The position numbers were made by a program, and so were the translations under genes. Of a stretch of 28,891 bases of DNA, positions 6,598 to 26,230 are shown in pieces. The number at the start of each line of letters is the position of its first letter. Within the stretch, counting starts at the first letter, position 1. Source of the stretch: Promethearchaeota archaeon. Its GTDB lineage: Archaea; Asgardarchaeota; Lokiarchaeia; Sigyniarchaeales; SOKP01. The notes under the pieces are model-generated. The model did no database searches. It saw only the letters and a program-made list of their open reading frames with translations, and was not told the DNA's origin. Where the stretch lies: contig JAHLWP010000043.1 in NCBI GenBank assembly GCA_019057865.1, positions 1 through 28,891 of the forward strand. The letters are read 5' to 3'.

Positions 6598-6887
6598 TAG
6601 ATAATAAATCAAAAGAAAAGTATCTTATTGAGGAGCTTTTAGGTTCAAAAGCTAGAGTCAAGATTTTAAAAGTATTAGCCGTACATAAAGAATTGACTAT
6701 ATCCTTAATTATTAATAAGACCAAATTAAATTATAATAATGTTTTAAAACATCTTACTTATCTTAAAGCAGTAAATTTAATTGATGAAAAAAAGTTTGGA
6801 CGAATAAAAATATTTAGATACAAAATTGAAAATATTAAGGCTAGAAGTTTAAAAAAATTAATAGAAATTTGGGAAGGAAATTTCTGA
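6594..6887 (+). CDS. Winged-helix (ArsR-like) DNA-binding protein
   Basis: LLGSKARVKILKVL...LTIS...HLTYL...LIDEKKFGRIKIF; 4-nt TTGA overlap with cdc6. Confidence 0.85.
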   Translation: MIDNKSKEKYLIEELLGSKARVKILKVLAVHKELTISLIINKTKLNYNNVLKHLTYLKAVNLIDEKKFGRIKIFRYKIENIKARSLKKLIEIWEGNF

Positions 6888-6891
6888 TCCT

Positions 6892-7560
6892 ATGAATTTC
6901 TTAATATTGATTTTTAATTTTTGGTTTATAAGTGTAATACTATTTTTTTTTGTTTATCTTGATTTGAAATCCAGAAAAATTCCTAATAGTTTGTTTAAAT
7001 ATCTCTTTATTATTTGTATAATATTAAATTTTATTGAATTTGTTTTTTGTTTTGAAGATATTATAAGAGTAATTGTTTTGAAATTTCTTTTTCTATTTAT
7101 CATTCTTTCTTTATCATTTTTATTATTCGTTTTACACATTATTGGAGGAGCCGATGGGAAACTTTTTATGTTAATATTTTTTGTACATCCTGTCAAATTT
7201 TTAACTTTTTATTTCATAACTTCTTTCCTTTTATTATTCTCCTTATTAGTTCTTTTAATTTTTATGATAAACTTCGCAAACAATATTAACTTCAGAAATA
7301 ATGATTCATTTGAAATTTTTTTTAATACAAATTACAAATTCTCAAGTTTTAAGAGAAGTTTTATTAAAACATTCTTTAAATTTTTGAATTTTTCAGAATT
7401 AGAGTATTATAATGAAGATAAACATCTTGTTAAAGCACTTATCTTAATTTACAATAGTGCAAGAAGAAGAATACAAATTCTAGTTCAGTATAGACCTCCT
7501 CTTATTTTTATCAGCTTAATATCTTATTTTACTGTTTTATTTATATGGGTTTATTTTTAA
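6892..7560 (+). CDS. Prepilin peptidase, A24 family (PibD/FlaK/TadV-like)
   Basis: Catalytic Asp motifs YLDLKSRKIPN and IGGADGK in a polytopic membrane protein; C-terminal PPLIF. Confidence 0.9.
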   Translation: MNFLILIFNFWFISVILFFFVYLDLKSRKIPNSLFKYLFIICIILNFIEFVFCFEDIIRVIVLKFLFLFIILSLSFLLFVLHIIGGADGKLFMLIFFVHPVKFLTFYFITSFLLLFSLLVLLIFMINFANNINFRNNDSFEIFFNTNYKFSSFKRSFIKTFFKFLNFSELEYYNEDKHLVKALILIYNSARRRIQILVQYRPPLIFISLISYFTVLFIWVYF

Positions 7561-7715
7561 AATTACTATAATAAGATTTAAAAAAATCTCGTAATTTGAT
7601 TTATATTTAATTTATAATATTTAAAATTTAAGTGCTTTAAGAAATAAAATTTTATATTTGAGAATTTTTATTAAATTAATGAAGCTTAATTATTTTATAA
7701 TGTGAAAAATACGAG

Positions 7716-8108
7716 ATGGAGATTGAAAAAATAAGAGAAACTTCTTGGAAAATTCAGTTAAAAAACAAGGATCAAAACATAGAAATAACTTCAGTAGAAA
7801 TTAGTGGCGAAGTTAGGATTATTAGGCTTGCTCTTCTAAATAAAGATAAATCAATAAGAGTTGAAATGAAGAAAGAAGAGTTTTTTAATTTACTCTCTTT
7901 AATATCTGCCTTTAAAGATGTTGTAATTGGAGAAGATTCATTTGTTATGGGAGAGGAATTAAATTTAATTGAGAGTAGAACACAACAAACTCATGATCTT
8001 TCTACTGAAAACGAAGATATTTATCTAATTAATTCTGAAACTTCGGAGAAAAATCTTGAGAAAGAGGATACAGAAGAGTTAAACCCTGAAGAATGGGATC
8101 CTTGGTAA
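7716..8108 (+). CDS. Hypothetical protein with beta4-alpha core and acidic Trp-ended tail
   Basis: Alternating beta pattern, then helix KEEFFNLLSLI; tail EKEDTEELNPEEWDPW. Confidence 0.7.
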   Translation: MEIEKIRETSWKIQLKNKDQNIEITSVEISGEVRIIRLALLNKDKSIRVEMKKEEFFNLLSLISAFKDVVIGEDSFVMGEELNLIESRTQQTHDLSTENEDIYLINSETSEKNLEKEDTEELNPEEWDPW

Positions 8109-8117
8109 ATACCTTAC

Positions 8118-8606
8118 TCATTGGATTCTTTCAATCTTATATTCACAATAATCTAAATTCAAATTTTCAAGACAACATTCATTTTCAGAAACAATTACCC
8201 TATATAGAGCAAATTCTCCAAAACCAGTTAATAAACCTGTTATAAAATAACAAAAGTATTTAGATTTATTTTCTAACTCTGATGATATATTATGATAAAG
8301 ACGTATAATGATCAAATCTTCAGAAACAAGTTTAGCACTCAATCGCCCCCACCCATGATTACTAAAAATGTTACAAAAATGATTTACTAAATCTTCTAAA
8401 GATTTTGGTTTTAGATTTTCATCCCAATTTTGTATAAATGTCCAACCTGCTTTTTTACCAAGCCAAACTAATAAAGATTTTACACCCTCACCATAAATTG
8501 ATGAAAGAATGTCAATTATTTGTGGAGGAAAAAAAACAAAACGATTATTAAATAATTCGTATTTGCCCTTATTATATTTTAAGCCTTTCAATTTCAAAGT
8601 TCTCAT
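8118..8606 (-). CDS. Stand-alone V4R (4-vinyl reductase / Bet3-like fold) domain protein
   Basis: LGKKAG, HGWGRL, CYFITGLLTG, ENEC...DYCEY pattern. Confidence 0.85.
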   Translation of the reverse strand: MRTLKLKGLKYNKGKYELFNNRFVFFPPQIIDILSSIYGEGVKSLLVWLGKKAGWTFIQNWDENLKPKSLEDLVNHFCNIFSNHGWGRLSAKLVSEDLIIIRLYHNISSELENKSKYFCYFITGLLTGFGEFALYRVIVSENECCLENLNLDYCEYKIERIQ

Positions 8607-8735
8607 AATAATTATCAGCTTTTTCTCTTATTTAATATTTTCTAACTTAATCTAATGAATATTAAGATTCAATATTTCTAGTGATTATATAAACCTAAGA
8701 TCTTTAAATAATTCTTTATAGAATTAATAAAGAAT

Positions 8736-9035
8736 ATGCTAGAATTCAATTTAACATTATTTGAGATTTTACTATTCTTAAGTATTTTTTTTTTAATGTT
8801 CATATATTCTGTGATATCAGCTGATTTATTAATTACGTTATTATCTTTTCTATTATATTTAATTCTTCTAATTCCATTATACTTTTTACTAGAAAAGCTA
8901 GAGAATTTAACATATATAAGCAACTTAAATAATATCTTTTTTGTTAGATTTGTTTTCTTTTGTTCGACATTAATAAATATCTTTATTGGAATATGCTTAT
9001 TTGTAGAGTTAGTATATCTCTTTTTTTTTGCTTAG
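8736..9035 (+). CDS. Small polytopic membrane protein (about 3 TM)
   Basis: Three hydrophobic segments; fits the gap between the V4R and TadC-like genes. Confidence 0.6.
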   Translation: MLEFNLTLFEILLFLSIFFLMFIYSVISADLLITLLSFLLYLILLIPLYFLLEKLENLTYISNLNNIFFVRFVFFCSTLINIFIGICLFVELVYLFFFA

Positions 9036-9057
9036 CAAAAACAACTTTAAGTTTTCT

Positions 9058-10584
9058 CTATACAAAATTCAATACATTCAATAATGAGATTAAAAAAGTT
9101 AAAATGAATATTATGTTCGCAACAATCACAATAAGAGGTTTCTTATTGTGATTAATAATTTTTAAAAAGTAATAAGAAGTAATTGAAATTATTGATAACA
9201 ATGATAGGAATATAATTATTATATCTTTGAAATATACTATATTAAAAAGAATATCTAATGAAAAATTATTACTTAATTGAATATTTTTATTTAACAAAAC
9301 AAAAAGAGGGAACATACCCCCTATAACCCCGGTGACGAGTGGTAGGAGAAATAAGAAAAAAAACACTTTAAATTTTTCTCCTTTTATTATTATTTCTAAT
9401 TTTGTTTCAAGTTTTTGATGTTTTGATAAAATAGCCAAGATGTCAAATATTTTTTCAGAAGAAAAAAAAGCATTTTGTTCAACAAATTTTTCAATAGCCT
9501 CTAAAATTATTTTGAAACGTATTGAATTTAATTCAAATTTTAAATTATTTATCATTTCTCGGAATGAACAAGAAATATTTAGAAGCAATGAAACTTGATT
9601 CTTTAAAGGGGCTTCTATCAAATCATAAAGTTTTCTATTTTGGGAATAAGATTTAAGAAAAGCACATTCAGGTGATATATTCCTTCTTAAATTATTAGCA
9701 AAGCTTTTTAAAAATAGAAGAAATTCATGAAATTTTTTTTTTTCTATTTTTGAATATTCGCCTATCAAACCTATTAAGTAATTATTTTGTTTTATAAACT
9801 TTTTAAATAATGAATTTAATATGAATAAGAAGAGAGGTATAGAAAGGATTGTAAAAATTAGATTAATCAGTTGGAATGAAAAAAGAAAACATAATCCTAT
9901 TGGAAAAAATAATCCTATAAAAAAGATTATACTTAATTTTGATTCGATATCTCTTAAATATATCTTAAATTTTCTTTCTAATGTATTGTCTTTAAAATCC
10001 ACAAATCCAGATTCATTATTAAAATTGGAGGTTAATAAATCTTTTAAATATCTATTAAAATCTTCAGAAGGTGTTAGAATGTTCATAAGCACTTTTTCTG
10101 GGAGTTCACCTTCATGAGTTCTTCTTAAAATTTCTTTAAAATTATCTGAAATTGGAAGATTATAATTTTTTATTAATTTTATGAAATTTATACAATAATC
10201 AGAATTTTTCTTTAATGATTTTTGGATCAGTGAAAAGTCTATTTTAATTAGAGAAAGCATTGCATTAATTATTGATTCATTTTTTTGTATTTCATTCAAG
10301 AGATAAACATTAAACTTATAAGATAAAATTAAAGAGAAAAGAAATGAATAAAATAAAATGATTAAAATATGAAAAAATGAGAAGATTGCAGAGAAAATAA
10401 CGAAAAAACTAAGTGAAATTAAAAATATTATAAAACTAGCTTTATAAATATCATCTTCACTAATATCATAAATATTATTATATATACTTTTATACCTGCC
10501 ATTTAATTCCTTAAATTTTAATTTGGGAATATGAGATTTATGAAATCTCCTACAAAAATAAAGATAACTCTCCATGAAATTCAT
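9058..10584 (-). CDS. Type IV filament platform protein (T2SS-F / TadB-TadC / ArlJ-like, two repeats)
   Basis: TM hairpins alternating with two soluble helical domains (HEGELPEKVL; RRNISPECAF); in an operon with a secretion ATPase. Confidence 0.75.
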   Translation of the reverse strand: MNFMESYLYFCRRFHKSHIPKLKFKELNGRYKSIYNNIYDISEDDIYKASFIIFLISLSFFVIFSAIFSFFHILIILFYSFLFSLILSYKFNVYLLNEIQKNESIINAMLSLIKIDFSLIQKSLKKNSDYCINFIKLIKNYNLPISDNFKEILRRTHEGELPEKVLMNILTPSEDFNRYLKDLLTSNFNNESGFVDFKDNTLERKFKIYLRDIESKLSIIFFIGLFFPIGLCFLFSFQLINLIFTILSIPLFLFILNSLFKKFIKQNNYLIGLIGEYSKIEKKKFHEFLLFLKSFANNLRRNISPECAFLKSYSQNRKLYDLIEAPLKNQVSLLLNISCSFREMINNLKFELNSIRFKIILEAIEKFVEQNAFFSSEKIFDILAILSKHQKLETKLEIIIKGEKFKVFFFLFLLPLVTGVIGGMFPLFVLLNKNIQLSNNFSLDILFNIVYFKDIIIIFLSLLSIISITSYYFLKIINHNKKPLIVIVANIIFILTFLISLLNVLNFV

Positions 10585-10596
10585 ATTAGAAATACC

Positions 10597-11019
10597 TTAA
10601 TAGCAATCAATAAATTGGACCTTTATTAGATGTAATATGAAAGAAACATTCAAGAGGTATGTTTTAGGCAAAATATCATGAAAAACATTGTAGATAAAAC
10701 TTTCATTGTAGAATATAATTATATATTGCGGTTCATCTCCAATAATAAAATCATATTTAGCATATTGATTATATAATGTTATATTCAGATTGGATGGATA
10801 TTCGATGGATTTAAGAAAGTCTTCTTCTGGGTTATCAATAACATGAAGAATGGCTTGATCCATCTCATCAATAAAGGATATATAATTTTCTATGTCATTT
10901 TTTTCATTATTATTAAATTCGGATATTGCTTCTAAAAATGGGCTAATTAGAGAAAAGAAAATTAATAAAATTAAAATTCCAAAACCTATAATTAATCCCT
11001 TTTCCAATAAGTTTGTCAT
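10597..11019 (-). CDS. Pilin-like protein (single N-terminal hydrophobic helix plus globular domain)
   Basis: N-terminus TNLLEKGLIIGFGILIL aligns with the mature Flp pilin encoded at 22998-23201; lies between the ATPase and platform genes. Confidence 0.7.
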   Translation of the reverse strand: MTNLLEKGLIIGFGILILLIFFSLISPFLEAISEFNNNEKNDIENYISFIDEMDQAILHVIDNPEEDFLKSIEYPSNLNITLYNQYAKYDFIIGDEPQYIIIFYNESFIYNVFHDILPKTYLLNVSFILHLIKVQFIDCY

Positions 11020-11035
11020 GTAATTTAATTTAAAT

Positions 11036-13219
11036 TTAAAAATTTAAACCTCGATTCTTTTTCCAGTTATTCCAAAAATTCTCAAGTATGTCATATGATT
11101 GAAAAGAATTATAAGAGATTCTATGGAAGAAGTTGATTAATTTATAATTATCAACCTTATTAATTTTGGAGATAAATGTGAAAATATCATTATATATTTT
11201 GATTATAAATGAGAAATTTTCTCTACTTAAATCTTCATATCTTCTCAATTCATTAACTATTTTGGTTTCGAAAAGAGGATTTAATAAAATCCATTTTTTT
11301 GATTCCGGATTATATTGAAATATATTGTTGTATAGCTTTTCTATCTTTAGGTTATCTCCAATTTCAGAAATCGAGATGATTTTTCTTTGATTGCCATCTT
11401 TTTTCATTAAAATAATAAGATCTAAATCATTTAAACATGATTTATTAATTTTAAAATGATGTACAAATCGGTTAATTAAAGAATCTATATTATTAGAATG
11501 GATTGTTTGAAAACCCCTTAATCCAGCGGCAAGACAATGAAACATCGCCTCTGCCTCTTCTTTAGTCAATATTTCACCTAAGTATATCATATCTGGTGAT
11601 CGGTGTAAGAGTGTTTTTATCTGACTACTTTTGGAATAATTCTCTTTTAATGAAGAATCATAAGAATCAACTTTATATTTTAACTGATGTTTTCCGAAAT
11701 TAAATTGATTTAAAGATTCCACTATATTTTCAACATAGATCTTTCTAAATTCTTTAGGAGTTAATAAATCTAATGCATTAATCAATGTTGTTTTTCCAGT
11801 ATCAGTTTCACCGGTAACAGTTATGTTTCTTCTTCGTAAAATATTAAAATATAAGAAAGTAGCCATTAATGGGTTTAGAGTTCCATTTTTTAATAAATCT
11901 TGAATATTAAGAATATTTTTATTCAATTTTCTTATGTCTAACGCAAAGTTATTCAATTGAATAGGTTCAATATCTAACGCAAATCTACAATAGAAAAATT
12001 TGTTTTTTAAAACAAGTTTTATACTAGGTTTCATAAAATCTAGTCTTTGACCACTATAGAGTCTTAATAATGTTTTTATCCTTTCTATCTCTCTTATATT
12101 AAATTTTATATTTGTTCGACATCGCCCATATTTTTGATGATTAATATAAATTTCATCGTGAGGAGAATCTAAGAATATTTCTTCAATAAAATCATCTATT
12201 AATAAAGGAAAGATTTTTTCTAAATTTAATCGTTTTAGAGCTGAAATAAAGGCAATCTTATTATTATCAATTTTAGAAAATCGATACTTTTCATTAAGAA
12301 TTTTTAAAGATTCTCGTTTATATATATTTATTAAATTTTCTAAGGGGATAATTTGATCAAAGTTAACAATATTTAAGCTATTTGATATATCTTGAATAAT
12401 TTTTTTAATATAATCCTCTTCTGATCTTGAATGGTAATTATAATGGACTAAATATTTATTTTCAGCCTCAAATGAAATATTAGAAATGTAAACCTGATAA
12501 AGATTATTTTTTCCAATCATATAAGTTTTAATTATTTCCTCCTGTTTTAACAGAGTGGGGTGCCTAAATTCTTGATCTTTTGCATGTAGTTGGAAGGATT
12601 TAGAAAATAAATTCTTATAAAAATTGAAACTGTCTTGAGATTTATCGCTTTCATATTTAAACTTATTGAGCAATTTAATAATTTTTAAGTGATTTAAGAT
12701 TTCAGCAATAGATTTTTCTAAGCTTTTTAAATAATTAACACAATTTAAGCAAAAATTATTAAAAATTTTATTTTCTTCTAAAAAAGAAATTCTTTTCAAG
12801 TGGGTATTATATACTAGAACTGGGTCATAGAACTCGAAATCATGTATTTTAACTAATGAAAAATAATCTGGAAAATTTTTACATTTAAATTCTTGATAAA
12901 CACATCTCTTTTTCCTAACATTTTCAATTTTTTGATTTATTCTTTTAATCTTATTTAATTTTTTGAAATAATCCAGAATTAAATCATATTGTTCAGGTTC
13001 AATTAAGATTTCATTTTTCGAAATTAAAATACAATTAAACTTGTTATTTTTGTTGATAAAGAGATTAAGTAATAAACAGTAAATACATGTTTTATTCTTA
13101 TAGAACTTTTTTTCTTTTTCAGAACATTTTTTGCAATCAATAATTAAGAAATTCTCTTTTTTACCTGCTAAATTTTCTTTTTCTTGAAAAATGACTCTTT
13201 TTTTTAGATTTATTACCAT
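11036..13219 (-). CDS. Type II/IV secretion ATPase (TadA/CpaF/ArlI/VirB11 family) with a Cys-rich N-terminal extension
   Basis: PLLIDDFIEEI, LDIRK, Walker A GETDTGKTT, RSPDMIYLGE, QTIHS, LDLII. Confidence 0.92.
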   Translation of the reverse strand: MVINLKKRVIFQEKENLAGKKENFLIIDCKKCSEKEKKFYKNKTCIYCLLLNLFINKNNKFNCILISKNEILIEPEQYDLILDYFKKLNKIKRINQKIENVRKKRCVYQEFKCKNFPDYFSLVKIHDFEFYDPVLVYNTHLKRISFLEENKIFNNFCLNCVNYLKSLEKSIAEILNHLKIIKLLNKFKYESDKSQDSFNFYKNLFSKSFQLHAKDQEFRHPTLLKQEEIIKTYMIGKNNLYQVYISNISFEAENKYLVHYNYHSRSEEDYIKKIIQDISNSLNIVNFDQIIPLENLINIYKRESLKILNEKYRFSKIDNNKIAFISALKRLNLEKIFPLLIDDFIEEIFLDSPHDEIYINHQKYGRCRTNIKFNIREIERIKTLLRLYSGQRLDFMKPSIKLVLKNKFFYCRFALDIEPIQLNNFALDIRKLNKNILNIQDLLKNGTLNPLMATFLYFNILRRRNITVTGETDTGKTTLINALDLLTPKEFRKIYVENIVESLNQFNFGKHQLKYKVDSYDSSLKENYSKSSQIKTLLHRSPDMIYLGEILTKEEAEAMFHCLAAGLRGFQTIHSNNIDSLINRFVHHFKINKSCLNDLDLIILMKKDGNQRKIISISEIGDNLKIEKLYNNIFQYNPESKKWILLNPLFETKIVNELRRYEDLSRENFSFIIKIYNDIFTFISKINKVDNYKLINFFHRISYNSFQSYDILENFWNNWKKNRGLNF

Positions 13220-13351
13220 TTAAAATTCTTTTAAAATGAAAAAATTTAAATAACACTATTTTAGTTATTCGCAGAAGTTTCTTGAGTAGTTCTTAAATGA
13301 AAAAATTTATTTATTTTAAAAAATTCATATCCAAAAGTTAAGTGATTATTT

Positions 13352-14371
13352 ATGGGTCATCGTAAAAAGCACGCCCCCAGACATGGGTCATTAGCATACC
13401 TTCCTAGAAAAAGGGCCATGCAAATAAAGGGTAGAGTAAGACATTGGTTAGATAATTCAGAAAATATTAATTTCCTTGGATTTGCTGGTTTCAAAGCAGG
13501 AATGACTCATATAACATATATTCAAGATCAAAGAAATAGTCCTTACTATGGAAAGGAATTAATGAAACCTGTAACAGCTATAGAGGTTCCACCTCTAATC
13601 CTAATAGGGATTAGAATATATAATAAAGATGAATATGGAAGATATATTAGTGGTGAAATATTCACTAATGATTTTAATAATTTCTTAACGAGAAAAATTA
13701 ATATCCCAAACACTGAAGGATATAATTTGAAGAAGATCCAAAAAGAGATATTAGCAAACTTAAATGAAACTAGTGAAATCAGAGGTATCTTTCAAACGCA
13801 ACCTTATAAAACTTCTTTACCGAGGAAGAAACCAGATATTATTGAAATCAAAGTAAACTCACTAAAAAAACCGGAAGAGGAGTTTAATTTCGCTTTACAA
13901 AATCTAGGTAAAGAAATTAGAGCTCGAGAAGTTTTGGAAGAAGGAGAATTGGTTGATGTAATTAGTGTAACTAAAGGAAAAGGTTTTCAGGGTCCTGTAA
14001 AGAGATTTGGAGTTAAAATCTTAACAAGGAAAAATAGTAAAGTAAGAAGAGCTGTAGCTTGTATCGGTCCTTGGCACCCAAGTAGAGTACTTTATACTGT
14101 ACCTCGTGCCGGACAATTAGGATTTCATCAGAGGACTGAATATCATAAAAGAATTATGCTGATAGGTGAAAATGAGGAGGAAATTAATCCAAAGGGAGGG
14201 TTTATCCGATATGGAAAGATACAAGGAGATTATTTATTAATGTTAGGATCCATTCCTGGATCAAAGAAAAGGTTAATCAGAATAAGAAAAACAATCAGAC
14301 CATTAAGATCATTCATCCTTCAACCTCCAGAAATTACTTTTATTAGCCGTGAAAGTCACCAAAGGAAGTAA
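13352..14371 (+). CDS. rpl3: 50S ribosomal protein L3 (uL3)
   Basis: APRHGSLAYLPRKRA, GFKAGMTH, TKGKGFQGPVKRFG, GPWHP, GQLGFHQRTE. Confidence 0.99.
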   Translation: MGHRKKHAPRHGSLAYLPRKRAMQIKGRVRHWLDNSENINFLGFAGFKAGMTHITYIQDQRNSPYYGKELMKPVTAIEVPPLILIGIRIYNKDEYGRYISGEIFTNDFNNFLTRKINIPNTEGYNLKKIQKEILANLNETSEIRGIFQTQPYKTSLPRKKPDIIEIKVNSLKKPEEEFNFALQNLGKEIRAREVLEEGELVDVISVTKGKGFQGPVKRFGVKILTRKNSKVRRAVACIGPWHPSRVLYTVPRAGQLGFHQRTEYHKRIMLIGENEEEINPKGGFIRYGKIQGDYLLMLGSIPGSKKRLIRIRKTIRPLRSFILQPPEITFISRESHQRK

Positions 14372-14393
14372 AATCTAAATATAATGTGATTTT

Positions 14394-15182
14394 ATGGACA
14401 AAATTAATATATATAATTTAGATGGAAAAAAAAAAGGACTGGTTGATAAACCACAAATATTTAATATTAAACCAAGAAAAGATCTTATTCAAAAAGCAAT
14501 AGAAATCTCTCAAAGTAGAAAAAAACAAATTCAAGGAAGAAATAAAAAAGCAGGATTAAAAAATACTGCAGAAAGTTGGGGGACTGGCCATGGGCTATCT
14601 AGAGCTCCAAGAATAAAAGGATCTGGATTTACTACTGCTAGACATGTAGGAAGAGTTCCATTTGCTGTAGGTGGCAGACGTACACATCCGATTAAAACCG
14701 AGAAAAATTTAAAAAAAAAGATAAACAAAAAGACAAATAAATTATCTATAATGTCTGCTATTTCTGCTTCTGGATATAAATCATGGGTTAAAGAAAGAGG
14801 TCATATAATAAATAATGTCCCTGAAATTCCATTGGTTATTGATGACAAAATACAATCAATTAAAAAAACAGCCAAAGCTTACTCAATTTTATGCAGTTTG
14901 GGATTAGAAGAAGAACTGGTTAAGAATAAAAATAGTAAAAAGATTCGAGCAGGAAAAGGAAAAAGAAGAGGACGCAAGTACAAAAAGAAAAGAGGAATAT
15001 TATTCGTCATTAAGGATGATTTTGGAATAATTAAAGCTTCAAAAAATATTCCCGGGATAGAGATAATAAAAATTGAAAACATATCAATCGATGATCTGGC
15101 ACCCGGAGGTTCATCAGGACGATTGGTATTATGGACTCAATCTGCTTTTTCTGAATTGAATCACTATGAGGTGCCAATTTAA
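14394..15182 (+). CDS. rpl4: 50S ribosomal protein L4 (uL4)
   Basis: AESWGTGHGLSRAPR, RAGKGKRRGR, LAPGG...GRLVLWT. Confidence 0.99.
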   Translation: MDKINIYNLDGKKKGLVDKPQIFNIKPRKDLIQKAIEISQSRKKQIQGRNKKAGLKNTAESWGTGHGLSRAPRIKGSGFTTARHVGRVPFAVGGRRTHPIKTEKNLKKKINKKTNKLSIMSAISASGYKSWVKERGHIINNVPEIPLVIDDKIQSIKKTAKAYSILCSLGLEEELVKNKNSKKIRAGKGKRRGRKYKKKRGILFVIKDDFGIIKASKNIPGIEIIKIENISIDDLAPGGSSGRLVLWTQSAFSELNHYEVPI

Positions 15183-15183
15183 T

Positions 15184-15447
15184 ATGGAGCGATTTTATAA
15201 AATTATTAAAAGACCTTTAATTACAGAAAAAACATTTGATTTAATTGAAAAAGAAAATAAGTTAGTTTTTATTGTTGACCGATTATCGAATAAAAACCAG
15301 ATAAAAAAAGCTTTTGAAAAAATTCATAATGTAAATGTAATTAAAGTTAATACAATGATCACTACTCAAGGAGAAAAAAAAGCGTTTATTAAACTTCATC
15401 CTGATAACTCTGCTCAAGATATTGCAATTGACTTAGGAATTTTCTAG
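15184..15447 (+). CDS. rpl23: 50S ribosomal protein L23 (uL23)
   Basis: PLITEK, ENKLVFIVD, VIKVNT, GEKKAFIKL; ATG at 15184 directly after the rpl4 stop preferred. Confidence 0.97.
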   Translation: MERFYKIIKRPLITEKTFDLIEKENKLVFIVDRLSNKNQIKKAFEKIHNVNVIKVNTMITTQGEKKAFIKLHPDNSAQDIAIDLGIF

Positions 15448-16566
15448 ATAAGAACTATTTTTAAGTGTTTTAAAATTAAAGGTTGAGAATTCATCGGGAT
15501 GCATTATCTTAATTTTCTTTAATAGTTTAAGCTCTTTAATTTCAAATAATTTATCATATTCTTTCTCATTTAATATTAAAATGTAGATAAAGTATTTAGA
15601 ATGATAGTGTTCAATTATTTTCCTTATTAAATTAGAATCCAACAGAGTTAATACTAAAAATATACACCATTGTTCGATAAATATTAAATGTTTACTTAAT
15701 CTTTTAAATTCAATTTGATTATTTAATAAGTTCAGTTCAAATTTGCTATTAAATGACATAAGTTCTGAAAGGGTATTTTGATCTTCAGACAAAAATAGAT
15801 CTTTTAAATCTTCTAATAAGTAAAAATTATCAGAGATTCCCAATCTCCATAAAAACTTGAAAAGATCTTTTATATTTATTTTTAACTTTTCCAATAAGGC
15901 TATATTAAAAAAAAGATTTACATTTTTTTCAATGCTATTTACATCTTCGTATAATTTATTCTCTTCTACAAAATAGGACAGAATTTTTATATTATCACTA
16001 AAATCTACTTTAATATGAAAAATCAAAAAACCGCTTCGATTATAATTATTAATTATATTTAGAAAACAATAGATAAAAGAAGTTTTCTCGTCAATTCTTT
16101 CCAAATTTATTCTATAGAAATCCAACCTTCTAGGATTCTTATTATCCTTAATTAGAATCGAGTCTGAATTTTTCGATATATGTATATTAGATTCAAAACC
16201 ATTTAGAAGTATAGCTAAAAATTCTTTTTCTAAATCGTTATTTCTTAAAAATTTAATTAAAATCCCATCTTTATTTAATGTTTCATAAACAATATTAAAC
16301 GATTTTGTAATCCTATCTTTTTCAATATCCTCAAAATTTATTACCACTATCTTTTTATTTTTATCTCTAGTATTCAATTGTATTGAGAAATATTTTATAT
16401 ACTTCTCAATTAGAAATTTACTCAAAATTGAAATTAATGGATAAAACTTTTTCACTTCAATGAAAGTAAACGCTATAAATTTATTAGGATTGATTAAATT
16501 CTTATAAAAAATTAAATGTTCATCAACTAAATATGATAATAATCCATATTTACCTTTTTTACCCAT
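15433..16566 (-). CDS. Hypothetical alpha/beta protein (377 aa)
   Basis: Long ORF with no recognised motif; 3' end overlaps rpl23 by 15 nt. Confidence 0.75.
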   Translation of the reverse strand: MGKKGKYGLLSYLVDEHLIFYKNLINPNKFIAFTFIEVKKFYPLISILSKFLIEKYIKYFSIQLNTRDKNKKIVVINFEDIEKDRITKSFNIVYETLNKDGILIKFLRNNDLEKEFLAILLNGFESNIHISKNSDSILIKDNKNPRRLDFYRINLERIDEKTSFIYCFLNIINNYNRSGFLIFHIKVDFSDNIKILSYFVEENKLYEDVNSIEKNVNLFFNIALLEKLKINIKDLFKFLWRLGISDNFYLLEDLKDLFLSEDQNTLSELMSFNSKFELNLLNNQIEFKRLSKHLIFIEQWCIFLVLTLLDSNLIRKIIEHYHSKYFIYILILNEKEYDKLFEIKELKLLKKIKIMHPDEFSTFNFKTLKNSSYLENS

Positions 16567-16657
16567 TTCGTAAATTATTTTAGCATAAATTATATAAACA
16601 TAGACATTTTGTTAAAATCAATATCAATTTTACTATAAATTAAATTATAATCTATTT

Positions 16658-17932
16658 ATGGTTATAAAATTGCTAGAATCTATTCGAGCATTTTTAACTA
16701 GTTTAAATCCAGATATCATAGTTCAAGCACCATCCAGAATTAATTTAATTAATCCATTAGATGCTGTAGAGGGAGATTTCTGGATGCCTTCTGTAGCAAT
16801 TAATGGAGAAAACGATCCTTTATCTGCTTTTCTTTATATCAAGAAAATTAACAATGAAAGTAGAGTAAAGTTGTTTAATATTAGAAAAAAACATCAAAAT
16901 TATGATTTTGAGATAATAAAAGAAGAAATCCTTCCTAAGAATAGGAATGATATTAAAAAAAAGAGCTCTGGAGAACTTAAATTAATATATGCAAGTATTA
17001 ATAAATTTCTTGAAATGAATTCATGTTTTAACTATAAGTTTTTAAATTCCAATATTGAAATTGGTTTTTTTACAACTATACCTAAACAAAGTGGATTGGG
17101 AGGGAGTACAGCAATAATAATAGCAATAATTTATGGTCTCGCTAAATATTTCAATTTATATAATAATTTAACAAAGTTAAGAGAGAATGAATTTCCTATC
17201 AATAAAGATACGATTGCTGAAATGGCCACAAAAATAGAAGATGAAGATTTGCAGATCACAGCTGGTTATTCTGATAGATATGTAATAAGCAGGGGAGGTT
17301 TATGTTTTTGTTCCTATTATGGTAAGTTAAATCATAAAAAACTTTCAATGGAACCTTTAGCAGTTTATGATAGAATCGATAAGGTATATAAGATAAATGA
17401 TTTGCCCATAATTGTTTGCTTCTCTGGTGTATTTCACAAAAGCGGCGATGTCCATGCAAGATTAAGGAAACTTTATCTAAAAAAAGATCCTAGAATCATA
17501 AATGGATATTTTAAATTAGCGGAAATATCTTGGAAATCGCGATTTGCTATAATGAAACAAGATTGGAAATTATTAGGCAAATATTTCAAAGAAAATACTG
17601 AAATAATGAATCAAATAATGAAAAATGCGGGTTTTGAATATGGTATTGGATTAGCAAATAATATTTTAATAAGAGTTATTGAAGAACACCCAGAAGTGTA
17701 TGCTGCTAAATTAACTGGAGCAGGAGGTGGTGGCTCAGTTTTTGCCTTAGTTAATCCTGATAAAAAGCAAGAAATTTTAAACTATTGGGAAAAAAAAGTA
17801 TATGAAATCATTGAAAATAATGATATTTTTTCTTCTGTTTTTCCAAATTTCCCATCTAATATTAGATTTAAGCTTAAAAATGCGAAGTTCTATAAAATCA
17901 TAATTGATAGAGATGGTGTGAAAAGATTATAA
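16658..17932 (+). CDS. GHMP-family sugar kinase (glucuronokinase / heptose-7-phosphate kinase-like)
   Basis: APSRINL, IPKQSGLGGSTA, GYSD, AAKLTGAGGGG. Confidence 0.9.
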   Translation: MVIKLLESIRAFLTSLNPDIIVQAPSRINLINPLDAVEGDFWMPSVAINGENDPLSAFLYIKKINNESRVKLFNIRKKHQNYDFEIIKEEILPKNRNDIKKKSSGELKLIYASINKFLEMNSCFNYKFLNSNIEIGFFTTIPKQSGLGGSTAIIIAIIYGLAKYFNLYNNLTKLRENEFPINKDTIAEMATKIEDEDLQITAGYSDRYVISRGGLCFCSYYGKLNHKKLSMEPLAVYDRIDKVYKINDLPIIVCFSGVFHKSGDVHARLRKLYLKKDPRIINGYFKLAEISWKSRFAIMKQDWKLLGKYFKENTEIMNQIMKNAGFEYGIGLANNILIRVIEEHPEVYAAKLTGAGGGGSVFALVNPDKKQEILNYWEKKVYEIIENNDIFSSVFPNFPSNIRFKLKNAKFYKIIIDRDGVKRL

Positions 17933-17977
17933 TCTATTAAAAATAAAATATATATAGATAAATACTGCAGACTTATT

Positions 17978-18157
17978 ATGAGCAAATTCGATAGATACCA
18001 AAAAAAAGCGGAAGTATATGTTTATCCACATAAACATTGTAAAAAATGTGATCAAATGATAAATGAGGGTATTTCCTATTGTCCTGAATGTTATCAAGAG
18101 ATGAAGAATAAGAAAAGGAAGAAAAGATTTTGGAGGAAAAAAACCCCTAAAGTGTAA
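17978..18157 (+). CDS. Small Zn-ribbon protein, DUF2116-like (59 aa; absent from the ORF track)
   Basis: Translated by hand: MSKFDRYQKKAEVYVYPHKHCKKCDQMINEGISYCPECYQEMKNKKRKKRFWRKKTPKV; PHKHCxxC...YCxxC. Confidence 0.85.
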   Translation: MSKFDRYQKKAEVYVYPHKHCKKCDQMINEGISYCPECYQEMKNKKRKKRFWRKKTPKV

Positions 18158-18179
18158 AATCATTAAATGTTTATCAGGA

Positions 18180-19886
18180 TTAGGCTCTTAATCTCTCTAA
18201 GACCCAATCTTTATCGAGTAATGTTAAAAAGGGCCCTAATCGAGGTCCAAAGTTTTTTCCTAAAATAATTTGATATATTGCTTCAAACATCTTTCTTGGA
18301 AGAATATTTAAGTTATCCTTTGCTATACTAAAAATTTTATTTTGTACCAAATCTTCTTTCAAGTCTTTAGTGTCTTCTATATATTTTCTTAATAATTTTA
18401 TTCCTTGAAATTGTTTATCATCTAATTTCTCTATTATTTTTTTATCTACATTTTCTGGGATTTCAAAGATATCAATCTTATTTGTTAGTTCTTTGCGTTT
18501 TCTTGCATCTTTTTCATTTTTAATAATTTTTTTTGCTTCTCTAACCCAATTTTCAGTTCTGTTCAATAGAAATTCAAACTCCTCAATCGAAATCATTTTT
18601 TTCAAACCCTTCTTTTCCATAATAGATTTAGCTTTATTGTATAATTTCTGTGTATCTAAAATGTTCTGTAGCTGTGATAAAAAGATTAATAGCTTCAACG
18701 GGATTTTAAAAGATTTAACCTCAGGAATATTGTTTGTCTTAGTTAAAGGATATAAATATTGCAAAAATTTTTGCTCCTCCTCATTATCAGCATCCTCCAA
18801 AGAAAAATAAATGTTTTCCATTTTATCATAATAATCAAAATACTGAGGATATTCCTCAATTCTTAGAGATATATGTTTCATTGGGTTAGTTCTTAAGATC
18901 AACGCTCGATATAGCTCAGGATCAGCAACTTCTAAATAATTTTTAGGTGTAAATACTATTCCCTTTGAAGTTTTCATGTCTTGATCCCCTAATCTTAACC
19001 ATTCATAAGGCACTTTTACAGGACCTACATACTCGAATATTTCTTGGCATAATTCTAAACCTGTATCATATGCACCTCCTTTTACGCTATGATCTTTGCC
19101 TGCTGGTTCACATGTTGTTTTATAAATAGACCATTTTGCAGGCCAATCTACACGCCAATTTAACTTTAACCTACCACTATAAATTGATAAATTGCTTTCA
19201 TATCCACAAGCTGAGCAAATATATGAAACTTTCTGCTCATTTTTAAAATATTCCAATATTCTATTAGGTTTAATAGAACCATCTTTTTTTAGATGTTGGA
19301 TCTTGTCACATTTTTCACAAATTGCCATAACTGGCATCCAATTTTTTTGCATTTCAATAAAATTTGCCTTTTTCTCTTCATCTAAGGTTGGTAAAATGTA
19401 TTTCTTCAAGATTTTTTTAATCTTGTCCGTATTTTCTAAGGAAATTTTAATTTTTTCTTGCATTTCTTTAGTTTTATACAGATTATGAGACCAAATTATC
19501 TCTGTTCTTATCCCAAAATCGTCAAATGTAGAAATTAATTCATTTCCGAAATGGTGAGCATAACTTTCGCATCCACAATCTTTAAATGGACATGGTATCA
19601 AAGAAAAAGGTTTTCCTTTATGTTTCTCTTGAAATTCTTGGTTAATATAGGCAGGAAACCTTTTTGCAGCATCTAAACTGTCTAAAAATAGGAAAAACCT
19701 TACAATTTTACCTTTCTTTTCAAAAATCCTTCTTAAAGCATCACAAATTATAATCTCCCTTAAAATTCCAATATGAGTTTGTCCAGAAGGGGTTTTTCCA
19801 GTAGCTAATGTTATTAAAGATTCATTTCTTACCAAAATTTTATCAACAATTTCTTCTAACCAATGAACATAAATTCTTTCACTCAA
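18180..19886 (-). CDS. lysS: Lysine--tRNA ligase, class I
   Basis: HW, TPSGQTHIG, KLNWRVDWPAKW, EPAGKDH, MKTSKG, GPRLG; TTG start. Confidence 0.97.
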   Translation of the reverse strand: MSERIYVHWLEEIVDKILVRNESLITLATGKTPSGQTHIGILREIIICDALRRIFEKKGKIVRFFLFLDSLDAAKRFPAYINQEFQEKHKGKPFSLIPCPFKDCGCESYAHHFGNELISTFDDFGIRTEIIWSHNLYKTKEMQEKIKISLENTDKIKKILKKYILPTLDEEKKANFIEMQKNWMPVMAICEKCDKIQHLKKDGSIKPNRILEYFKNEQKVSYICSACGYESNLSIYSGRLKLNWRVDWPAKWSIYKTTCEPAGKDHSVKGGAYDTGLELCQEIFEYVGPVKVPYEWLRLGDQDMKTSKGIVFTPKNYLEVADPELYRALILRTNPMKHISLRIEEYPQYFDYYDKMENIYFSLEDADNEEEQKFLQYLYPLTKTNNIPEVKSFKIPLKLLIFLSQLQNILDTQKLYNKAKSIMEKKGLKKMISIEEFEFLLNRTENWVREAKKIIKNEKDARKRKELTNKIDIFEIPENVDKKIIEKLDDKQFQGIKLLRKYIEDTKDLKEDLVQNKIFSIAKDNLNILPRKMFEAIYQIILGKNFGPRLGPFLTLLDKDWVLERLRA

Positions 19887-19973
19887 AACCTTTTCACTCC
19901 ATAGCGAATTCTTTATTTAATTAATGATCACATTTATTTATCATTTTTTATTTTAGATCTTAGTGATTACTTT

Positions 19974-21785
19974 ATGAGAATTGCTGTTCTTAATAAAGAC
20001 CAATGTAAGCCAGGTAAATGTAGTCCTTTTGGAGAAAAACCTTGTATAAAATATTGTCCGAAAGTAAGAACAGGAGATAAAACCATTGTTTTAAGTCAAG
20101 ATAGTAAAAGAGTTATAATTACAGAAAGCCTTTGTACTGGGTGTGGAATTTGTATTAAAAAATGTCCTTTTAACGCAATTAGTATTGTTAATCTTCCCGA
20201 TCAATTGAAAAATCAAATAACCTATCGATATGGTCCAGATCAATTCTCTCTATTTAGAATGGCTATTCCTAAAAAAGGAAAAGTATTAGGTTTAATTGGA
20301 GAAAATGGGATAGGTAAAAGTACAATGTTAAAGATCTTATCTGGAGATTTAAAGTTAAACCTTGGAAGATTTGAAGAGAATGCTCCTGATGATAATGAAA
20401 TAATTAGTTTTTTTAAAGGATCTGAATTACAGCAGTACTTTATTGATCTTAAAAAAAATAAATCTAAAATTGTACTCAAGCCTCAGGATATTACAATAAT
20501 ACCTAAGTTTGTTTCGGGTAAGGTTTTTGATTTATTGATAAAAAACGATGTAGAAGATAAACTTGATGAGATAACAGATCAATTAAATTTATCTGAAATT
20601 ATAGATCGTGATATTTCAGTATTATCTGGTGGTGAATTACAAAGAGTAGCAATTGCTGCTGGCTACCTGAAAGATGGAGATATTTACCTTATAGATGAGC
20701 CGAGCTCTTATTTAGACGTTAGTGAAAGGATTAATATGGCTAAATTAATCAGATCACTAACTAAGAGAAATAAAATAATCATTGTTGTTGAACATGATTT
20801 AGCAATTTTGGATTATTTAAGCGATTATATTTCTTTATTTTATGGGGTTCCAAGTGTATATGGAATAATTTCTCATCCTCAAGGAGTAAGAGTCGGTATA
20901 AACATATATCTTAATGGATATATTAAAGATGAGAATCTTAGAATAAGAGATACACCTATTCAATTTCATGAACGCCCACCTCAAGATTCTTTATTTGATT
21001 TAGGAGAAGTAGTTTTTTCGTATGATGATCTAGAGAAGTCTTTAGGAGATTTTCATTTAACTGTTTCTGGAAGTGAAATTCATGCAGGTGAAATTATCGG
21101 AATATTAGGAGCAAATGGGATCGGGAAATCAACTTTTATAGATTTAATTGCTAATAAAATTAAAGCTGATGATGAAACTAGTAATAATAAAAATAAAGAG
21201 TTAAAAGTGTCTGTTAAACCTCAATATATTAAAATGGATAAGTCTATTTTAGTTGCTGATTTAATAAAAAAAATTAAATTAGCTCCTCATCTGAGTGAAT
21301 CCTTTAAAAAACGTATAATTAATAAACTAAATCTAACAGATATTGGCGAGAGAATTATTTCTGAATTAAGTGGCGGTGAATTACAAAGAGTTGCAATAGC
21401 AACTTGTCTGACCAATGATGCTGATATCTATTTATTTGATGAACCTTCCGCTTTTTTAGATGTAGAAATGAGACTACAAGTAGCCCAGTTATTAAGAAAA
21501 TCAATTGAAGAGATAAAGAAGGCTGCGTTTGTGGTAGAGCATGATATTATTACTCAAGATTTTATTGCTGATTCAATCTTAGTTTTCGAAGGAACACCTG
21601 GATTAGAAGGAATAGCAATGGTACCTCAAAATTTAAGAGATGGTTTTAATTTATTTTTAAAAATGATGGGTATTACTTTTAGGAGAGACTCAATTACCAA
21701 AAGACCCAGAGTCAATAAAACTGGAAGTAACAAAGATGTTTATCAGAAGAAGATAAATGAATATTATTACATACCAAAAGGTTGA
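19974..21785 (+). CDS. abce1: Ribosome recycling ATPase ABCE1/RLI
   Basis: N-terminal Fe-S domain (CKPGKC...CP; CTGCGICIKKCPF), two NBDs (GENGIGKST and GANGIGKST; LSGGELQR twice), TFRRD...RPRVNK. Confidence 0.98.
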   Translation: MRIAVLNKDQCKPGKCSPFGEKPCIKYCPKVRTGDKTIVLSQDSKRVIITESLCTGCGICIKKCPFNAISIVNLPDQLKNQITYRYGPDQFSLFRMAIPKKGKVLGLIGENGIGKSTMLKILSGDLKLNLGRFEENAPDDNEIISFFKGSELQQYFIDLKKNKSKIVLKPQDITIIPKFVSGKVFDLLIKNDVEDKLDEITDQLNLSEIIDRDISVLSGGELQRVAIAAGYLKDGDIYLIDEPSSYLDVSERINMAKLIRSLTKRNKIIIVVEHDLAILDYLSDYISLFYGVPSVYGIISHPQGVRVGINIYLNGYIKDENLRIRDTPIQFHERPPQDSLFDLGEVVFSYDDLEKSLGDFHLTVSGSEIHAGEIIGILGANGIGKSTFIDLIANKIKADDETSNNKNKELKVSVKPQYIKMDKSILVADLIKKIKLAPHLSESFKKRIINKLNLTDIGERIISELSGGELQRVAIATCLTNDADIYLFDEPSAFLDVEMRLQVAQLLRKSIEEIKKAAFVVEHDIITQDFIADSILVFEGTPGLEGIAMVPQNLRDGFNLFLKMMGITFRRDSITKRPRVNKTGSNKDVYQKKINEYYYIPKG

Positions 21786-21848
21786 AACCTTGCCTTAATT
21801 AAAAACCTGAATATTTTAGATAGATTAAATAACCTTGCCTTAATTAAA
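21786..21848 (+). repeat. Two exact 18-bp direct repeats AACCTTGCCTTAATTAAA
   Basis: Copies at 21786-21803 and 21831-21848 (period 45). Confidence 0.9.
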
Positions 21849-21858
21849 TAACTATTAC

Positions 21859-22041
21859 ACTCCTTGATTTCCATTGGAAATATGATACAAAAACAATTTT
21901 CAAAAATTAGTATAATTAGTAGTTTAATAAAATAATTTATATATGATTAATTAATTTTTTCTTGGGGCCATTTCAAAATATATACTTAATTTTTTCTAAA
22001 AACTTATTTAAAATAATAACTTCCAGTAGAAATTGATGAGT
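21859..22041. other. Candidate replication origin: inverted ORB-like pair flanking an AT-rich spacer
   Basis: Minus strand 21859-21879 TTCCAATGGAAATCAAGGAGT and plus strand 22021-22041 TTCCAGTAGAAATTGATGAGT (16/21 identical), 141-bp AT-rich spacer, between convergent genes. Confidence 0.55.
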
Positions 22042-22127
22042 ATATAATAATATTATTAATTAATTATTAACTTACTATAAATATTTGTGCATAAGCTTCA
22101 ATTAAAATTAAAAAAAAATATTATTTA

Positions 22128-22382
22128 TTAATCTTTTATTTTCCAAAGAATTAATGGCCTACCACGTCTCCCATCATTTCTAGTAAATTTTTCAACCATT
22201 CTTCTTTTTTGAAGTTTAATTAAATTATCATAAATAGTTGTTCTAGGTGTTCTTAATTGATTAACTAAATCCCTACGTGTTAATGGACCAGTTTTAGCTA
22301 ATATTTTCATTAAATTATATTGAATAGGTGATAAATATTCTTTAGAATCAAGCATTCCTTTTATAAAACCCTCATTTGCCAT
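22128..22382 (-). CDS. Small winged-helix DNA-binding protein (TrmB-like HTH)
   Basis: GPLTRRDLV...PRTTIYDNLIKL...VEK...GRP..W. Confidence 0.85.
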   Translation of the reverse strand: MANEGFIKGMLDSKEYLSPIQYNLMKILAKTGPLTRRDLVNQLRTPRTTIYDNLIKLQKRRMVEKFTRNDGRRGRPLILWKIKD

Positions 22383-22582
22383 AATCTATTCCTCTACATA
22401 TTTCGAATTTTTAGTTCGACAATTTTTCGACTTTTTAATTTTTGAAAAGAGAATTGAGATCTTAATATAATATGTAATTTTGTTATATATAAGTATGCTT
22501 ATTTATGCATTATTATCATCAATCAGCACTAAAATTTATAAAGGAATGTTATTAATTTGTTATTGTTATATATGATTTTTTT

Positions 22583-22969
22583 ATGAAAATTGAAAAAATG
22601 ACTGAAACTACAAGAACTACTGTTACACTAAATAAAAGCTATATGAAATTAATTGAAGAACTGGTAGATGTTTTTGGAGCTTCCAAAGCACAAGTAATTA
22701 GTAATATAGTAGAACATTTTTTTAATGATAGTAAAAATGACGCTCTATTAGAAAAATTAAGAGAAAGAAAAAGAAAAGAAAAGCATCCTGAAAAACGTGA
22801 TCTTGATAATCGTATTAAAAAATACTTAAAAAGAGCGAATAAAATACCATTTGAAATATTTATTAAACATTTGAAATTGGATACTGATTTTGTTATTAAT
22901 AATTTAGATGAATGGGGAGAATTTTATAATTTTGTTCTAATTGATAATAAGATTACGAAGATTGAATAA
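22583..22969 (+). CDS. Ribbon-helix-helix (CopG-like) regulator with an extra C-terminal domain
   Basis: RTTVTL (ribbon), KLIEELV, SKAQVISNIVEHF; the C-terminal ~55 aa may be winged-helix-like. Confidence 0.7.
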   Translation: MKIEKMTETTRTTVTLNKSYMKLIEELVDVFGASKAQVISNIVEHFFNDSKNDALLEKLRERKRKEKHPEKRDLDNRIKKYLKRANKIPFEIFIKHLKLDTDFVINNLDEWGEFYNFVLIDNKITKIE

Positions 22970-22997
22970 TATTCTAATAAATTGTGAGGAATTAAAT

Positions 22998-23201
22998 TTA
23001 CCCTTTAAACAAGTCTGAAAAATCATCTGCCAGACCTTGAACCCAATCTAGCATTCCCGTTATTATCCCGACTATAATGAAAAATATAAATAAAGCAAAA
23101 CCAATTAATAAAGCATATTCTACTAAATTTCCACCCGACTCATCAGAGAAGAATTCTTTAATTTTTTTACCAAATTTTTTTAGAAATTTATATTGATACA
23201 T
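22998..23201 (-). CDS. flp: Flp/Fap-type (type IVc) pilin
   Basis: Basic leader ending FFSDESG, then GNLVEYALLIGF with Glu+5 and Tyr+6 (Flp motif), 44-aa mature peptide. Confidence 0.88.
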   Translation of the reverse strand: MYQYKFLKKFGKKIKEFFSDESGGNLVEYALLIGFALFIFFIIVGIITGMLDWVQGLADDFSDLFKG

Positions 23202-25936: not shown

Positions 25937-26230
25937 ATGAAATTTGATCCTAAAAAGATAATTTTTAAGCCAAGTATTATAGGTTCATCTGGTCTTAATC
26001 TTGCTGAATTTCAGAGAATAATAAGAGAGATTTACACTTCTGGAATAGGAATTGATGAAAAGTATAATACTAAGATTACAAAGACAATAGCAGAACCAAA
26101 AAGTAAATATATGGTACATGTAAAACAAATATGGCGAAAAGATCCAGATGGAGATGTATTTTTAAATATACGATATGTAAAAAAAATGAGAAGTAAAAAA
26201 AAGGTTTCCAAATGGGGTAAAGTAGTATGA
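25937..26230 (+). CDS. Small basic protein, putative toxin (RelE/MqsR/DUF4258-like position)
   Basis: 97 aa, basic, helix followed by beta meander; ATGA overlap with the downstream antitoxin-like gene; the toxin call rests on context. Confidence 0.5.
   Translation: MKFDPKKIIFKPSIIGSSGLNLAEFQRIIREIYTSGIGIDEKYNTKITKTIAEPKSKYMVHVKQIWRKDPDGDVFLNIRYVKKMRSKKKVSKWGKVV

Follow-up and report, generated by a model that had tools for sequence, protein, structure and literature searches.

A probable Epd/Flp-type type IV filament locus in a Lokiarchaeial genome and its Asgard relatives

A stretch of 28,891 nucleotides (nt) from a Promethearchaeota archaeon (GTDB lineage Asgardarchaeota; Lokiarchaeia; Sigyniarchaeales) carries five genes whose products probably make up a single archaeal type IV filament machine of Epd/Flp type: a family A24 prepilin peptidase, a secretion ATPase, a platform protein, a small leaderless pilin-like protein, and a short prepilin (Table 1). 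The stretch, hereafter the window, is a whole contig (C26; JAHLWP010000043.1) of a metagenome-assembled genome (MAG; GCA_019057865.1) that comprises 4.26 Mb in 87 contigs, is 99.67% complete, and has a GC content of ∼24%. A preliminary description, made from the letters of the window alone, had read these genes as a Tad/Flp-like (type IVc) pilus system scattered among housekeeping genes and inherited vertically as one system; each open reading frame (ORF) that it claimed was found at the coordinates it gave. Comparison with 40 relatives strongly supports the unity and vertical inheritance of the five-gene system.

Across the 40 relatives, the five genes are present or absent jointly. Within the genus, the ATPase, platform, and peptidase genes were each found in 21 of 24 genomes, the pilin gene in 22, and the small-protein gene in 19, and all five are absent from three genomes (G006, G007, and G023). 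Co-occurrence of the pilin with the ATPase and platform had been put forward in the preliminary description as a check on its proposal; the pilin is indeed found together with both, and the three genomes above have lost them jointly. In the window, the ATPase, small-protein, and platform genes follow one another on the minus strand with gaps of 16 and 12 nt, and the small-protein gene always sits between the other two. The pilin gene lies 10 kb from this ATPase operon, a distance that is conserved within the genus on one contig. Elsewhere the order is compact: a cdc6 paralogue, a winged helix-turn-helix (wHTH) gene, peptidase, platform, small protein, ATPase, and pilin. This compact locus was seen in a further genus of the family, in a family sister to it, and in two Asgard classes besides Lokiarchaeia. 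For example, G183 (same family, other genus) carries cdc6, wHTH, peptidase, a 130-aa (amino acid) gene, a 162-aa gene, platform, small protein, ATPase, and a divergent pilin. In the sister family (G030, G034, G036, G038, G028, and G032), the peptidase and pilin lie beside the ATPase, and in G041, a closed 1.4 Mb genome, as well as in G077 and G057 from other families, the pilin, platform, and ATPase are adjacent. In all ten of these genomes the cluster contains the peptidase, with 0.1–2.7 kb between pilin and ATPase; in G183, G030, G034, G077, G057, and G041 the pilin adjoins the ATPase.

Such contiguity in other genera, families, and classes indicates that the genes were ancestrally arranged as a compact locus amid a conserved set of housekeeping genes. 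Judged by gene order, the dispersed layout of the window is a derived rearrangement specific to this genus. The earlier picture of scattered genes thus describes the window correctly but not the system, which forms a compact locus elsewhere and to which the cdc6 and wHTH genes belong. Taken together, co-occurrence and clustering elsewhere argue strongly, on comparative grounds, that the genes act as one system and descend vertically. Moreover, the genome contains no competing filament system: a genome-wide search returned a single A24 peptidase, the one true secretion ATPase is that of the window, and no archaellin was found. On all of these counts the proposal of one vertically inherited system stands.

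Two observations concern gene content within the genus. G024 has apparently lost the primary ATPase operon and kept the primary pilin and peptidase. In addition, a second, paralogous ATPase-platform-pilin-peptidase set occurs in some same-genus genomes, at L034 (G012:C16), L035 (G024:C7), G008:C116, and G018:C69. Its ATPase is ∼47% and its platform ∼41% identical to the primary proteins, and it has its own A24 peptidase and a 127–150-aa pilin-like gene directly upstream of the platform.

The candidate major pilin is the 67-aa protein. It consists of a basic 23-aa leader, the junction G/GNLVEY (the slash marks the predicted cleavage site), and a single hydrophobic helix, with no globular domain. 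Cleavage is predicted between Gly23 and Gly24, which places Glu at +5 and Tyr at +6 of a predicted mature subunit of ∼44 aa. By sequence, the prepilin has a charged leader, a small residue at −1, Glu+5, and a hydrophobic helix, as expected of a class III signal peptide. The preliminary description had seen a textbook Flp signature here; the G/xxxxEY pattern is present in the ORF, but its score against Flp_Fap (PF04964) is below the cut-off. Flp_Fap is the sole Pfam pilin model touched by the family, and searches of the genome with the Class_IIIsignal, Pilin_N, and archaellin (PF01917) models gave no match. A G/xxxxE[aromatic/aliphatic] pattern followed by an uncharged hydrophobic stretch near the ORF start occurs in four ORFs of the 4.26 Mb genome, and this ORF is the only short pilin-like protein among them. 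An alignment of 21 family members from several Asgard classes shows an invariant Glu+5, an invariant Trp, a [GA]/[GS] junction, and no globular domain. An exhaustive search of 1.84 billion representative sequences with the pilin profile found just 204 proteins at E ≤ 0.001, so the pilin forms a small family of its own; the weak tail of that search contains true Flp_Fap proteins along with one TadE and a handful of archaeal Pilin_N proteins. Some family members are already named ‘Flp’ in IMG and PGAP annotation.

The peptidase assigned to family A24 in the preliminary description was confirmed as such. It matches Peptidase_A24 (PF01478) with 34.4 bits against a cut-off of 26.5, and both catalytic motifs are in place: Asp24 lies in D-L-K-S-R-K-I-P and the second Asp in G-G-A-D-G-K. 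Both are kept in relatives. A comparison with PDB sequences gave no match even at E 10.

The peptidase gene is one ORF in the window and in five relatives, and is divided between two frames in 15 of 21 same-genus genomes. In the divided genes, the N-terminal part carries the first Asp and stops at or shortly past a run of 10–16 T, and the C-terminal part, with its G-G-S-D-G-K motif, invariably follows in the −1 frame. Such genes were seen in L030, L042–L056, and 19 of L064–L143. Among the 39 named loci with both peptidase motifs, 20 are intact, 19 are shifted to −1, and none to +1, with T tracts of 10–17 nt. The 0-frame TAA stop is formed with the last T of the run in seven of the 15 same-genus genomes. 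In G020, the C-terminal part has no canonical start codon ahead of its catalytic motif. The C-terminal frame stays open for 158–173 codons, for which the probability in a random frame, inferred from the ∼24% GC composition, is ∼4e-7 per genome. Both halves are conserved and open, which looks like conserved recoding, either by a ribosomal −1 slip or by slippage of RNA polymerase; an oligo-T terminator effect at the tract is also possible. Alternatively, the split may be a single ancestral lesion retained by descent. Since the peptidase is intact in the window, the frame split leaves this genome’s gene unaffected.

The ATPase is, from its domain match and motifs, the putative motor of the machine. 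It matches T2SSE (PF00437) at 2.9e-15 (56.2 bits against a cut-off of 24.9), and its Walker A, Walker B, and His box (residues G470, G475-K-T-T, E549, and H574) are invariant in 12 Asgard sequences from several classes. An N-terminal extension of ∼300 aa contains conserved CxxC...CxxC motifs. The best NCBIfam match is FlaI, at 89.6 bits and far under the equivalog cut-off of 550. Among PDB sequences, the ATPase matches afGspE (3e-26, 95 bits) and FlaI (1e-21, 80 bits) ahead of CpaF (7e-8, 34.6 bits), so the scores favour the archaeal afGspE/FlaI proteins over the Tad motor CpaF. The best 80 matches of the ATPase scan over genome contigs all come from Asgard MAGs. A full-length, 46%-identical copy of the Asgard-type ATPase is present in L125 (JANBVM010000002.1), which is labelled ‘Patescibacteria group bacterium’ and is probably a mis-binned Asgard contig. 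A second T2SSE match in the genome of the window, on contig C69, was rejected; it is a PIN-domain PilT-like ATPase amid tRNA and housekeeping genes.

The 508-aa protein is polytopic and its predicted fold is that of a GspF/PilC-type platform. It has no Pfam or NCBIfam match, a genome-wide search with T2SSF (PF00482) was also empty, and its 245 homologues are all ‘hypothetical’ Asgard proteins. An AlphaFold2 (AF2) model built from a 21-sequence alignment has a predicted local distance difference test score (pLDDT) of 83.9 and a predicted template modelling score (pTM) of 0.77. In this model, residues 275–406 align with the N-terminal domain of PilC (2whn) at Z 9.6 over 103 of 103 residues and 2.8 Å, with EpsF (2vma) at Z 9.0, and with TcpE (4hhx) at Z 7.9; the PilC model 3jc8 also aligns. 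Four independent GspF-family cytoplasmic domains thus align nearly full-length with this segment at Z 7.9–9.6, and the GspF-like SpoIIIAB scores Z 10.4. Likewise, the full chain matches an archaeal ‘GspF domain’ cluster of the ESM Atlas with a template modelling (TM) score of 0.74 over 477 residues, and a second archaeal GspF-domain cluster, part of whose members carry PF00482, with TM scores of 0.60/0.68. On the predicted model we accept the protein as a GspF/PilC-type platform. The preliminary description had called it a two-repeat, TadC-like platform. The platform part of that assignment is upheld by the predicted fold, but T2SSF gives no sequence match, and the repeat is unsupported at the sequence level because hhalign of the N-terminal against the C-terminal half gave a probability of <1%. 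The halves that are fused here are encoded by two genes in orthologous loci of other Asgard classes (L058 and L060).

Between the ATPase and the platform, the 140-aa protein is a candidate minor pilin, primer, or anchor. Its AF2 model (pLDDT 90) places a helix at residues 2–62 and strands at 68–138, a pilin-type topology of helix and beta head. Without the initiator Met, its N-terminus aligns residue by residue with that of the predicted mature pilin, including Glu+5, and the same match between small protein and mature pilin is found in the G030 pair. Having no leader, the protein would not need the peptidase. The full-length structural matches that it has, weak as they are, are to type IV pilins; a Foldseek search with the model found no match. 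ArlF, ArlG, and minor pilins likewise combine a pilin-like N-terminal helix with a beta domain, and the 140-aa protein has no cleavable leader, but it shows no sequence match and no significant fold match to ArlF or ArlG. Because its N-terminus copies that of the mature pilin, including Glu+5, entry into the filament is suggested rather than a stator role like that of ArlF/ArlG.

We infer the working of the machine from family knowledge, and this holds for the cleavage site, polymerisation, the role of the small protein, and the biological function. The 67-aa prepilin would insert into the membrane, where the A24 aspartyl peptidase would cut off the 23-residue basic leader after Gly23. A FlaI/GspE-type ATPase, docked as a hexamer on the GspF-fold platform, would then spend ATP to extract the mature ∼44-residue helical subunits from the membrane. 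The resulting thin pilus would consist almost purely of packed N-terminal helices, as in Flp/Tad pili and the Epd pili of Methanococcus. The 140-aa protein may enter the same assembly site unprocessed, either as a priming or tip subunit or as an anchor retained in the membrane. By analogy with related systems, attachment to surfaces or partner cells would be the most likely role, and DNA uptake is possible.

The system probably lies with the archaeal Epd/Flp filaments, among which it would form a separate Asgard variant, rather than with bacterial Tad. In a 2026 survey, the Epd pilus (‘System 1’ among archaeal type IV filaments (T4F)) is characterised by a platform encoded by two genes, a pilin that lacks the globular domain, and a peptidase of its own. 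The two-gene platform of other Asgard loci, the headless pilin, and the dedicated peptidase are Epd traits and argue for this placement. With the Epd pilus of Methanococcus maripaludis (EpdJ/K/L and EppA), the window shares a very short headless major pilin, a class III peptidase in the locus, and a FlaI/GspE-type ATPase. The two-gene platform is shared with Asgard classes outside Lokiarchaeia, whereas the window has a single fused gene. Moreover, in contrast to the Epd system, the platform of the window is not recognised by T2SSF profiles, the ATPase carries the 300-aa Cys-rich N-terminal extension, and the prepilin junction is the Flp-like G/xxxxEY rather than a Q/E-type Class_IIIsignal motif (no match in the genome). 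The Asgard locus also adds the leaderless pilin-like gene, the cdc6 paralogue, and the wHTH gene.

With bacterial Tad/Flp systems, the locus shares the G/xxxxEY prepilin signature, a mature pilin of ∼45 residues, and a minimal core of peptidase, ATPase, and platform, and the split TadB/C platform resembles the two-gene platform of Asgard loci outside Lokiarchaeia. It differs from them in that the pilin is under the Flp_Fap gathering score, the ATPase has 34.6 bits to CpaF against 95 to afGspE, and the host is a single-membrane archaeon. The secretin RcpA, TadZ, and TadD/E/F/G are absent from the Pfam matches of the window ORFs and annotated neighbours, a negative that comes without a search aimed at them. 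The preliminary assignment to Tad (type IVc) is therefore best narrowed: the system is Tad-like in the sense of the archaeal Epd/System 1 side, but its ATPase scores nearer afGspE/FlaI and its pilin is sub-threshold. The 2026 survey lists Asgard T4F loci as rare and scattered, assigns some of them to Aap-like pili, archaella, or subsystem 4D, leaves their function open, and, in its relevant text, does not mention System 1 for Asgard archaea. Our literature search found no paper connecting Flp-like pilins with Asgard archaea. The earlier statement that no characterisation of such a filament was known in Asgard archaea is to be read with the reservation that some of these pilins already carry the label ‘Flp’ in public annotation and that scattered T4F parts are listed in the survey.

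Several points weigh against the existence of one working Epd/Flp-type machine, which we nonetheless hold with good confidence. A look-up of RNA data for the pilin region returned none. The prepilin reaches 18.4 bits in a Pfam scan where the Flp_Fap gathering score is 32.2, and just six of the 21 pilin family members touch that model, each sub-threshold. For the platform, the assignment depends on a predicted model that drew no Foldseek match in the PDB, and middling Z scores can arise by chance for helical bundles. The fold matches of the 140-aa protein to type IV pilins are weak, at Z 4–5 with a maximum of 5 (VIA-align). Finally, about half of the relatives have the peptidase gene split over two frames, and should this be a sign of decay instead of recoding, the enzyme would not process the pilin in all of them.

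The last of these points would also suit a reading in which the genes are remnants of an ancient system, or have become independent and ceased to cooperate. So would their spread across 16 kb amid housekeeping genes in this genus, and the 2026 survey urges caution because scattered Asgard T4F genes may not work together. We nonetheless regard such decay as very improbable: the five ORFs are intact in the window with their catalytic residues kept, the genes are 45–75% identical across the genus and are lost jointly, and the open C-terminal frame of the split peptidase would hardly persist by chance at 24% GC. Unlikely too, if less so, is a machine whose product is only a short fibre, of pseudopilus or competence type, that serves to take up DNA or export protein, instead of a long adhesive pilus. 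Competence pili and type II secretion run on the same core parts, and genes for the Epd-type pilus of Methanococcus are reported (PMC10133366) to be necessary for natural transformation. The link to a Cdc6 paralogue points the same way, as an Orc1/Cdc6 paralogue controls the Ups (DNA-exchange) pili of Sulfolobales (PMC6061795), which for the present locus is a lead only. However, the conserved locus showed no genes for DNA-binding or ComEC-like proteins or for secreted substrates, and headless pilins are known chiefly from adhesive Flp/Epd pili.

A degenerate archaellum, that is, a former rotary motility filament, is barely credible. FlaI is the best NCBIfam match of the ATPase, but the score falls far short of the cut-off, as noted above. 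FlaF/FlaG-type proteins have archaellin-like N-termini that are unprocessed, and in this they resemble the 140-aa protein. The genome has no match to archaellin (PF01917), however, and the predicted filament subunit is a 44-residue helix without an archaellin domain.

The genes that accompany the locus offer some hints to its control. Synteny indicates that the cdc6 paralogue and the wHTH gene are conserved members of the pilus locus across Asgard classes and not mere background. The pair adjoins pilus genes in L030, L031, L032, L033, L036, L037, L060, and L063, and the wHTH gene, which lies 4 nt upstream of the peptidase, is conserved along with cdc6. In G041, the pilus genes again adjoin cdc6-wHTH, and a TFB gene is near, as in the window. 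The genome has three Orc1/Cdc6 paralogues, one of them linked to the locus; this paralogue and the wHTH protein may serve in regulation instead of replication initiation. Several relatives likewise have a TFB gene near the pilus locus. Two further genes, encoding the 130-aa and 162-aa proteins, accompany those for the platform and the peptidase in two families. The 130-aa acidic protein is 69% identical in G020 and occupies the same place in G183 and G035. Orthologues of the 162-aa protein, a possible ligand-binding accessory or regulator, adjoin the platform in L030, L032 (two copies), and L063, and are syntenic in two families. In G038 (L031, 2408–4171), a 587-aa protein encoded directly upstream of the pilin apparently has PKD-like repeats (identified by eye) and a C-terminal membrane anchor, and is possibly a pilus-associated adhesin.

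Table 1. Genes of the putative filament locus and its conserved neighbours in the window
Feature	Position	Strand	Length and basis
Orc1/Cdc6 paralogue	5383-6597	+	Cdc6 domains; overlaps next gene by 4 nt
Winged-helix protein (ArsR/HVO_A0114-like)	6594-6887	+	97 aa; weak HTH_5/HVO_A0114 matches, synteny
Class III signal (prepilin) peptidase, family A24	6892-7560	+	222 aa; Pfam, catalytic motifs
Acidic conserved protein	7716-8108	+	130 aa; between peptidase and platform; no Pfam/NCBIfam match
V4R/MsvR-C-terminal-like protein	8118-8606	-	162 aa; NCBIfam MsvR C-terminal part, 4.8e-7
Platform	9058-10584	-	508 aa, polytopic inner-membrane; predicted GspF/PilC/TadBC fold
Small pilin-like protein	10597-11019	-	140 aa; one N-terminal transmembrane helix, leaderless
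Secretion ATPase	11036-13219	-	727 aa; T2SSE/VirB11/FlaI-type; Pfam, motifs
Prepilin	22998-23201	-	67 aa; Flp/Epd-like; translation, family alignment

The host had been taken for a probable Asgard archaeon in the preliminary description, and the homologues of the studied genes agree: all that carry an organism label come from Promethearchaeota/Promethearchaeia (Loki-type) MAGs, under the Asgard labels of various submitters, and include Loki_b31/b32 and the original Loki’s Castle contigs. The other genes of the window are likewise of an archaeal, Asgard-like stamp, with Cdc6, TFB, class I LysRS, ABCE1, ribosomal proteins L3/L4/L23, and an Arf-family GTPase. The last, an Arf-family small GTPase at 110–796, is an Asgard eukaryote-signature protein. 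At 26227–27536, a SocA/Panacea-like gene overlaps a HicA-like gene, a possible toxin-antitoxin pair.

Combining these strands, we tentatively conjecture that an ancestral Asgard Epd/Flp-type locus is coupled physically, and perhaps regulatorily, to an Orc1/Cdc6 paralogue and a wHTH protein, that in much of Lokiarchaeia it is gated by recoding of the peptidase (−1 or transcriptional slippage at T10–17), and that it makes the unassigned filament on cultured Asgard cells, contacting syntrophic partners. We consider this combination possible rather than probable. If it is true, the efficiency of frameshifting would set pilin maturation and hence piliation, and the frame-split peptidase is in any case a possible instance of conserved archaeal recoding. 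Cryo-electron tomography has revealed pili ‘of one type’ on a cultured Heimdallarchaeon with no gene assignment; the locus is a genetic candidate for such pili, and it names a concrete predicted subunit of 44 residues to seek in filaments. The system escapes detection because its platform is invisible to sequence profiles and its pilin is sub-threshold. The contact structures of Asgard archaea matter because no closer relatives of eukaryotes are known and because these archaea live in obligate partnerships. The scattered T4F parts of Asgard genomes would here be one old, conserved locus, and the presence of a headless Flp-like pilin and a split platform within the Asgard lineage is relevant to the proposal that bacterial Tad pili descend from archaeal ones.

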